Positions 16,870 through 17,383 of a DNA stretch of 17,383 bases are shown here, in pieces (the stretch's first letter is position 1; the number at the start of each line of letters is the position of its first letter). The stretch comes from Escherichia coli. GTDB taxonomy: Bacteria > Pseudomonadota > Gammaproteobacteria > Enterobacterales > Enterobacteriaceae. The notes under the pieces are model-generated. The model searched no databases. It saw only the letters and a list, made by a program, of their open reading frames with translations, and had not been told where the DNA came from. The stretch lies in assembly GCF_003334255.1 (NCBI RefSeq), contig NZ_QOWU01000075.1; one strand, written 5' to 3'. The position numbers and the translations under genes are program-made.

Positions 16870-17306
16870 ATATTATCACTTACTGGCGGCTCATACTGAG
16901 CTGGTTAATGCTGTGCACACACAAACAAGCAATTCCATTTGTAATGTGCCTCCCTGGCAGTTTCATCCGGAACCCGGACGAAAGTAAAAATGCATATGAG
17001 TTGCACTAAAAAAGCGACTCACATTGTTCCGTTATAATGCCTGAAGTAGATCACAGAATATATCTTCAGGGATCGCATATCTATTAAGTTACTCACTCTT
17101 TTCTATTTATGACATGCGCGTGTTTGTATAAATGTAAATGTGAGTCCTTGTTCCACTCTCGTGCAGCATCGCTGGTCATACGCGAACACGTACCAACAGC
17201 AATGGTGAGGCGGCATCAAGAGCAGGGATCCGTCATTTATCCGAGCATTTTACCCCAAAAACCTTTTATTTATAAGGGTCATTGCGAATTATCTGATGCA
17301 AAGTTA
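16870..17306 (-). promoter_or_regulatory. lrhA upstream or leader region, interrupted at its distal end by IS1
   Basis: 437 bp AT-rich non-coding sequence between the lrhA start codon and the IS1 end. No convincing ORF. Promoter elements not mapped. Confidence 0.45.
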
Positions 17307-17383
17307 GGTAATGACTCCAACTTATTGATAGTGTTTTATGTTCAGATAATGCCCGATGACTTTGTCATGCAGCTCCACCGATT
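17307..17383 (-). mobile_element. IS1 terminal fragment (insB-proximal end, truncated by window edge); 23-bp terminal inverted repeat at 17307..17329
   Basis: Starts with ggtaatgactccaacttattgat (IS1 terminal repeat). 17307..17383 is the exact reverse complement of 1..77, and the minus strand of 17322..17381 encodes the same InsB C-terminus. Confidence 0.85.

Follow-up and report, generated by a model that had tools for sequence, protein, structure and literature searches.

An IS1 junction upstream of the lrhA promoter in an Escherichia coli K-12-type strain: a new allele that probably uncouples lrhA from distal upstream sequence

The window analyzed here, a stretch of DNA 17,383 nucleotides long, carries a genuine and recent IS1 junction upstream of lrhA in an Escherichia coli K-12-type strain. 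The IS1 lies upstream of the lrhA promoter and outside the leader, and it spares the core promoter, a conserved element at -54 to -39, the leader, and the coding sequence. With its end 437 bp from the lrhA start codon, the junction is a new allele that arose by an event of a common and already known kind. LrhA is a LysR-type regulator that acts as a repressor of flhDC, type 1 fimbriae, and RpoS and was recently shown to be an activator of CRISPR-Cas. Our combined results are probably best explained by a genuine IS1 junction that uncouples the lrhA promoter from a distal upstream module, and we hold this overall explanation with reasonable, though far from complete, confidence.

RESULTS

The junction and the IS1 end

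Positions 17307 to 17383 are identical at 77 of 77 nucleotides to the first 77 nucleotides (right end, IRR) of the IS1 found upstream of lrhA in W3110, and the terminal inverted repeat of IS1 (approximately 23 bp) is present at this end as GGTAATGACTCCAACTTATTGAT, beginning at position 17307; judged by its length and exactness, the match cannot be of chance origin. The 437 bp between this end and the gene (positions 16870 to 17306) are identical to the lrhA-alaA intergenic sequence of MG1655, in which the complete intergenic region measures 919 bp. The original prediction of an IS1 437 bp upstream of lrhA, with the lrhA coding sequence intact, is borne out in both respects, the second by the absence of any mismatch to the MG1655 gene. 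The LrhA of the window scores 600.9 bits over residues 1 to 293 against the NCBIfam equivalog NF011673, for which the cutoff is 530 bits. The features of the window are listed in Table 1.

IS1 is a 768-bp element that encodes insA and insB' with a programmed frameshift. Copies of the full 768 bp were found in other genomes; the window shows the terminal 77 nucleotides only. In W3110 the IS1 coding sequence and lrhA are on one strand, and by analogy the transposase of the window's IS1 would read on the minus strand, toward lrhA. The exact right junction, at 437 bp, had no match among 5,426 complete E. coli genomes.

Table 1. Features of the window, with positions counted from its first nucleotide
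Feature	Position	Strand	Remarks
Second IS1 right-end terminus	1..77	+	Inverted copy of 17307-17383, exact to the nucleotide; the element runs on past the left edge of the window
yfbP 3' fragment, from nucleotide 735 of 849 onward	78..192	+	By mapping to MG1655; gene cut by the left IS1
nuoN to nuoA, NADH dehydrogenase I operon	276..15300	-	Unaltered; flanked by the two IS1 ends
lrhA coding sequence, 312 aa	15931..16869	-	Intact; NCBIfam NF011673 and comparison with MG1655
lrhA 5' leader, 371 nt	16870..17240	-	Intact; identical to MG1655 (PMC10578931, PMC4152368)
lrhA -10 hexamer TAAAAT	17247..17252	-	From species alignment; ends 7 nt upstream of the leader-implied position
Distal lrhA promoter -35 hexamer TTATAA	17270..17275	-	3/6 consensus matches; retained
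Conserved proximal upstream element CAGATAATTCGCAATGA	17279..17295	-	Spans approximately -54 to -39 relative to the start of transcription; retained
Presumed 9-bp target site GCAAAGTTA	17298..17306		Adjoins the IS1 end; any duplicate lies beyond the window
IS1 right-end (IRR) terminus, 77 nt	17307..17383	-	Continues off the window to the right

The promoter and leader of lrhA are retained

The 5' untranslated region of lrhA is 371 nucleotides long and is targeted by the small RNAs UhpU, ArcZ, and RprA (Melamed et al., PMC10578931); Hfq-bound leader fragments and a transcript of approximately 1.5 kb have been described, and no transcription start was observed at the shorter annotated untranslated region (Bilusic et al., PMC4152368). 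A leader of this length places the transcription start at position 17240, so that the IS1 begins at -67. We fetched lrhA loci from 80 other Enterobacteriaceae species and analyzed 81 loci including that of E. coli; the promoter motif CTTATAAA-N15-17-TAAGAT was present in 63 of them and, with only two exceptions, lay 334 to 454 nucleotides upstream of the start codon; its conservation at the predicted place provides independent support for the promoter assignment. In an alignment of 17 Enterobacteriaceae species, conserved blocks were seen at 1 to 80, 381 to 426, and approximately 481 to 560 bp upstream of the lrhA start codon, the middle one of which comprises the core promoter and the CAGATAATTCGCAATGA element. 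At 437 bp, the insertion is beyond the 371-bp limit of the leader and is not of the W3110 type, in which the IS lies within it. The proposal that the IS1 sits in the regulatory or leader region therefore stands for the regulatory region and falls for the leader. An Rfam scan of positions 15200 to 17383 gave no match.

A consensus scan of positions 16800 to 17383 on both strands found no sigma-70-like promoters and no terminators. The IS1 end contains the hexamer TTGGAG, for which only poor -10 candidates were found by eye at spacings of 16 to 18 bp, and no hybrid or outward promoter created by the IS and directed toward lrhA was found. A weak promoter in the IS1 end, or weak read-through toward lrhA, is possible, but a strong outward promoter is without support; the earlier suggestion that IS1 may supply an outward promoter likewise found no support, no sigma-70-like site being predicted at the junction.

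A conserved distal element is displaced

The distal conserved block lies beyond the insertion point, whereas the other two are retained. Identity is 0.55 to 0.68 at 481 to 560 bp upstream of the lrhA start codon, compared with 0.23 to 0.47 further upstream. This block contains the motif TGTTAAG-N4-ATTAATG, which was found at 48 species loci, across genera. At 43 of the 48 its distance to the -35 block of lrhA is 138 to 143 bp, a spacing held despite poorly conserved intervening sequence and a variable leader length. The displaced tract is also the most AT-rich of the region, with a GC content at its lowest (24 to 26%) at approximately 408 to 557 bp upstream of the start codon. The -35 hexamer retained downstream, with only three of six consensus matches, suggests that the lrhA promoter depends on upstream input.

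In MG1655 the motif lies 547 to 530 bp upstream of the lrhA start codon (approximately positions 5172 to 5189 of the fetched locus) and outside the window, and it is adjoined by a TTATTTAATATT block that is conserved in many Enterobacteriaceae genera. No description of this distal cis-element was found in the literature searched; candidate binders are LrhA, OmpR, Lrp, and H-NS. The distance from the motif to the start codon of the divergent alaA is 358 to 378 bp in 41 of 47 loci, and the motif may serve alaA, lrhA, or both. Spacing as proof for lrhA over alaA was considered and set aside as indecisive, although it is tighter to lrhA (43 of 48 loci within 6 bp versus 41 of 47 within 21 bp).

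The displacement of conserved upstream sequence fits the original idea that the insertion could remove distal sites for activators or repressors; the contrary case, that all regulator sites lie in the retained 437 bp, is unlikely given the conservation data. The IS1 splits the core promoter from the distal element, and if this element is a control site for H-NS, OmpR, or LrhA, the insertion would be a strong up or down mutation, which we regard as improbable though worth consideration. If it is true, such alleles could explain strain differences in LrhA level among K-12 strains, and these differences change motility, RpoS, and CRISPR-Cas activity.

IS insertions at this locus in other genomes

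BLAST with chimeric queries (intergenic region plus IS1) against the 5,426 complete E. coli genomes located IS1 in or next to the lrhA-alaA region in the orientation of the window in 48 genomes (plus 3 partial cases) and in the opposite orientation in 35. About 80 of the 5,426 genomes (approximately 1.5%) thus carry IS1 in this region, at no fewer than 25 sites and in both orientations. Eighteen copies were fetched from other genomes for exact sites; a target-site duplication was present in 17 (9 bp in 15 and 8 bp in 2), and the remaining copy was accompanied by an adjacent deletion. Given as base pairs upstream of the lrhA start codon, with negative values inside the gene, the sites in the window's orientation were -66, 3, 146 (W3110), 206, 231, 412, 415, and 456, and those in the opposite orientation were -19, 16, 207, 273, 432, 483, 589, and 678. 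BLAST implied further sites at approximately 112, 208, 252, 274, 493, 506, 542, and 677 bp; four such estimates were checked, and all were correct.

Sites at 206 to 208, 231, 273 to 274, 483, and 677 to 678 bp recurred in both orientations, which indicates target-site preference rather than selection, and the location of the window's insertion is best explained by a preference of IS1 for the AT-rich, apparently H-NS-bound lrhA-alaA region. Two possible signs of selection were examined and rejected. The orientations, at 48 versus 35 genomes, show no convincing bias that would point to selection for read-through. The total of about 80, compared with about 11 expected under a uniform distribution (our own estimate, set against a count inflated by copies shared by descent), is roughly what a long AT-rich noncoding region would be expected to yield.

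The BLAST geometry of W3110 is shared by 14 of the 48 same-orientation genomes. The K-12-type records with IS1 at 146 bp, 14 in number, include HMS174, EV36 and derivatives, DSM 498, JW-5, Trp01, and ME8067; W3110 was checked base by base, and the other K-12-type records were assigned by identical BLAST geometry. In TOE3 (NZ_CP069086.1), IS1 lies 231 bp upstream of lrhA and the flank resumes at 448, so that 232 to 447, including the promoter, is missing; the point at which the flank resumes is also the target site of the 456-bp insertion of CB6886, which suggests either an adjacent deletion or recombination between a pair of IS1 copies. In DCM188-6, EEC_W5, isolate 131, and ZH193, IS1 is found in the first lrhA codons (-66 and -19) or 3 or 16 bp upstream, and in PEC422, HL15, and SF10 it lies within the lrhA coding sequence; IS1 insertions in lrhA or 3 or 16 bp upstream, in natural and laboratory strains, are probable null alleles.

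Other IS families are found here as well. The lrhA-alaA intergenic region of EC416 (NZ_AP027404.1) has an annotated transposase of ISApl1, a member of the IS30 family, which indicates that IS families other than IS1 also target the region. Published laboratory cases comprise IS5 at -137 of lrhA in a Keio ΔacrA strain, lrhA::IS3 in ER1821R, and an IS located in lrhA-yfbQ of an isobutanol-tolerant strain obtained by evolution. The expectation that IS hits near motility regulators recur is upheld by the approximately 80 genomes with IS1 together with the IS5, IS3, and unspecified IS insertions at lrhA.

A second IS1 end bounds the window

Two inward-facing, exactly inverted IS1 right-end termini, both of which were seen as their 77-nucleotide inner ends, bound the K-12-type segment that makes up the window. 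The 17,229 bp between them (positions 78 to 17306) have no mismatch to MG1655. The left IS1 truncates YfbP after codon 244 of 282, and the left junction (IS1-yfbP), like the right one, had no match among the 5,426 complete genomes. The presence of 77 nucleotides of repeat at both ends of the window looks like the edge of a k=77 assembly, and the right junction appears to be supported by reads and apparently fixed in the culture. A simple insertion and the boundary of an IS1-mediated inversion could equally account for this contig.

DISCUSSION

The IS1 at -67 leaves the lrhA core promoter, the proximal element, the leader regulated by small RNAs and Hfq, and the coding sequence untouched, while all DNA upstream of -66 is moved at least 0.78 kb away, or exchanged for other sequence should the IS1-bounded segment be inverted. 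We propose that the allele would uncouple the lrhA promoter from a distal upstream control module, and lrhA transcription would be lowered or deregulated, giving a hypomorphic allele with partial derepression of flhDC and motility. Reduced lrhA expression from the IS1 allele is a tentative expectation that we would put at somewhat under an even chance; increased expression is possible but doubtful, and the same may be said of the absence of any measurable effect. We lean toward reduced or deregulated lrhA on the grounds of the poor -35 hexamer, the removal of a distal element whose spacing is constrained, and the mostly loss-of-function-like character of the IS alleles at this locus; against this speak the transposase, which would read toward lrhA, and the activation of H-NS-silenced promoters by upstream IS elements.

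In BW25113, lrhA is strongly repressed by H-NS, whereas in the K-12 strain ER2738 its mRNA is markedly higher and H-NS repression is weak (PMC12968389). An OmpR ChIP signal is located in the lrhA-alaA intergenic region (PMC3945435). Tn5 in this intergenic region, oriented against lrhA, resulted in hypermotility (PMC5425062), and Tn5 oriented toward lrhA resulted in LrhA overexpression and reduced motility (PMC5654933); data from both orientations indicate that intergenic insertions can have effects of either sign. For ER2738, in which lrhA is high, an IS allele acting in cis, as in the window, is an idea worth checking.

Promoters silenced by H-NS are classically activated by IS insertion upstream, and IS1 or IS5 upstream of bgl and flhDC activates those operons. 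The window's IS1 might in the same way raise lrhA, by separating the promoter from an AT-rich tract at which H-NS silencing may nucleate and by read-through from the IS1; LrhA would then be more abundant, flhDC and motility would decrease, and RpoS and type 1 fimbriae would be lowered. We consider such a rise rather unlikely, even though the displaced tract has the lowest GC content of the region, the IS1 transposase strand points toward lrhA, a Tn5 facing the gene overexpresses LrhA, and lrhA, strongly repressed by H-NS in BW25113, differs in level among K-12 strains and is high in ER2738 (PMC12968389). Neither the junction nor the 77 nucleotides of IS1 contains a sigma-70-like hybrid or outward promoter, the similar frequency of the two IS1 orientations gives no sign of selection for read-through, and most of the other IS insertions in the lrhA coding sequence or leader look like losses of function. 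As a rule, IS1 is polar, and it represses its own, weak promoter. We are similarly doubtful that the IS1 is a neutral passenger in a tolerant, AT-rich hot region and that the retained 437 bp would suffice for lrhA. Neutrality would fit the retention of the entire leader, the core promoter, and the conserved element next to it, as well as the occurrence of at least 25 IS1 sites in both orientations, several of them recurrent, which favors target preference over selection; the approximately 7-fold excess over a uniform distribution is about what we estimate for a long noncoding AT-rich region. Against a neutral insertion stand the displacement of a motif that is found across genera at a fixed spacing and the weakness of the lrhA -35 hexamer.

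Two further alternatives concern the structure of the junction rather than its effect. It may be the boundary of a 17.2-kb segment (yfbP'-nuo-lrhA) inverted by intramolecular replicative IS1 transposition, during which the IS1 would have been duplicated; the segment could then flip by recombination between the copies. This is possible, if on balance unlikely, and as a matter of structure only, it is compatible with every functional reading. The exact reverse complementarity of positions 1 to 77 and 17307 to 17383, with right ends inward, is the geometry that established transposition chemistry would lead one to expect of an inversion-type intramolecular event, and the absence of both junctions from the 5,426 complete genomes suggests recent events that may be linked. 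The same contig would nevertheless result from two simple insertions that occurred independently and in opposite orientations (one of the four orientation combinations), and all 18 IS1 copies examined elsewhere in the region were simple insertions, one with an adjacent deletion. The other structural alternative, a chimeric join of the lrhA upstream region to IS1 during assembly, is very improbable. It is true that the window stops exactly 77 nucleotides into the repeat at both ends, as is typical of assemblers; yet a graph edge can extend across the junction into the repeat only when there are reads that span the join, the breakpoint coincides exactly with the end of IS1, as the chemistry of transposition demands, and IS1 insertions are common in this region.

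Hidden cis-regulatory IS alleles at lrhA are a realistic source of phenotypic differences among supposedly isogenic K-12 stocks, and the allele serves as a warning for users of this strain. It is also a natural cut at -66 that is useful for dissecting the lrhA promoter. Our survey identifies the lrhA-alaA region, which also includes a conserved distal element, as a recurrent IS1 target across E. coli.

Several known systems resemble the arrangement described here. Among IS1-flanked segments are composite transposons and the inversions that intramolecular IS1 transposition produces; the 17.2-kb segment of the window resembles them in having inverted IS1 ends on both sides, of which the inner 77 nucleotides are visible. 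In natural isolates, this 919-bp region has received simple IS1 insertions that are flanked by 9-bp duplications; these isolates belong to unrelated wild lineages, and none has an IS1 at 437 bp, the nearest sites being those of SB0258h1 (432 bp, opposite orientation), eco-241 (415 bp), TUM2826 (412 bp), and CB6886 (456 bp). The IS1 of the W3110 type is, like that of the window, upstream of lrhA in a K-12 background with its right end and transposase strand toward the gene. At 146 bp, however, it lies inside the 371-nucleotide leader and splits the promoter from lrhA, whereas the window's IS1 leaves both joined; the two insertions are independent events.

The IS1 and IS5 insertions upstream of flhDC and the IS5 and IS3 insertions at lrhA affect the same motility circuit as the window's IS1; they arose spontaneously in laboratory stocks and alter regulators of flhDC. 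For K-12 stocks, the flhDC insertions are said to have been described by Barker et al. in 2004. Those insertions activate the master operon directly, whereas the IS1 of the window lies in the upstream region of the gene for a repressor, lrhA, so that the expected direction differs. Activation of the bgl type likewise involves IS1 or IS5 in AT-rich DNA upstream of an H-NS-repressed promoter, which is also the situation at lrhA; at bgl the silencing is relieved by the IS, whereas at lrhA the direction of the effect may be the opposite.
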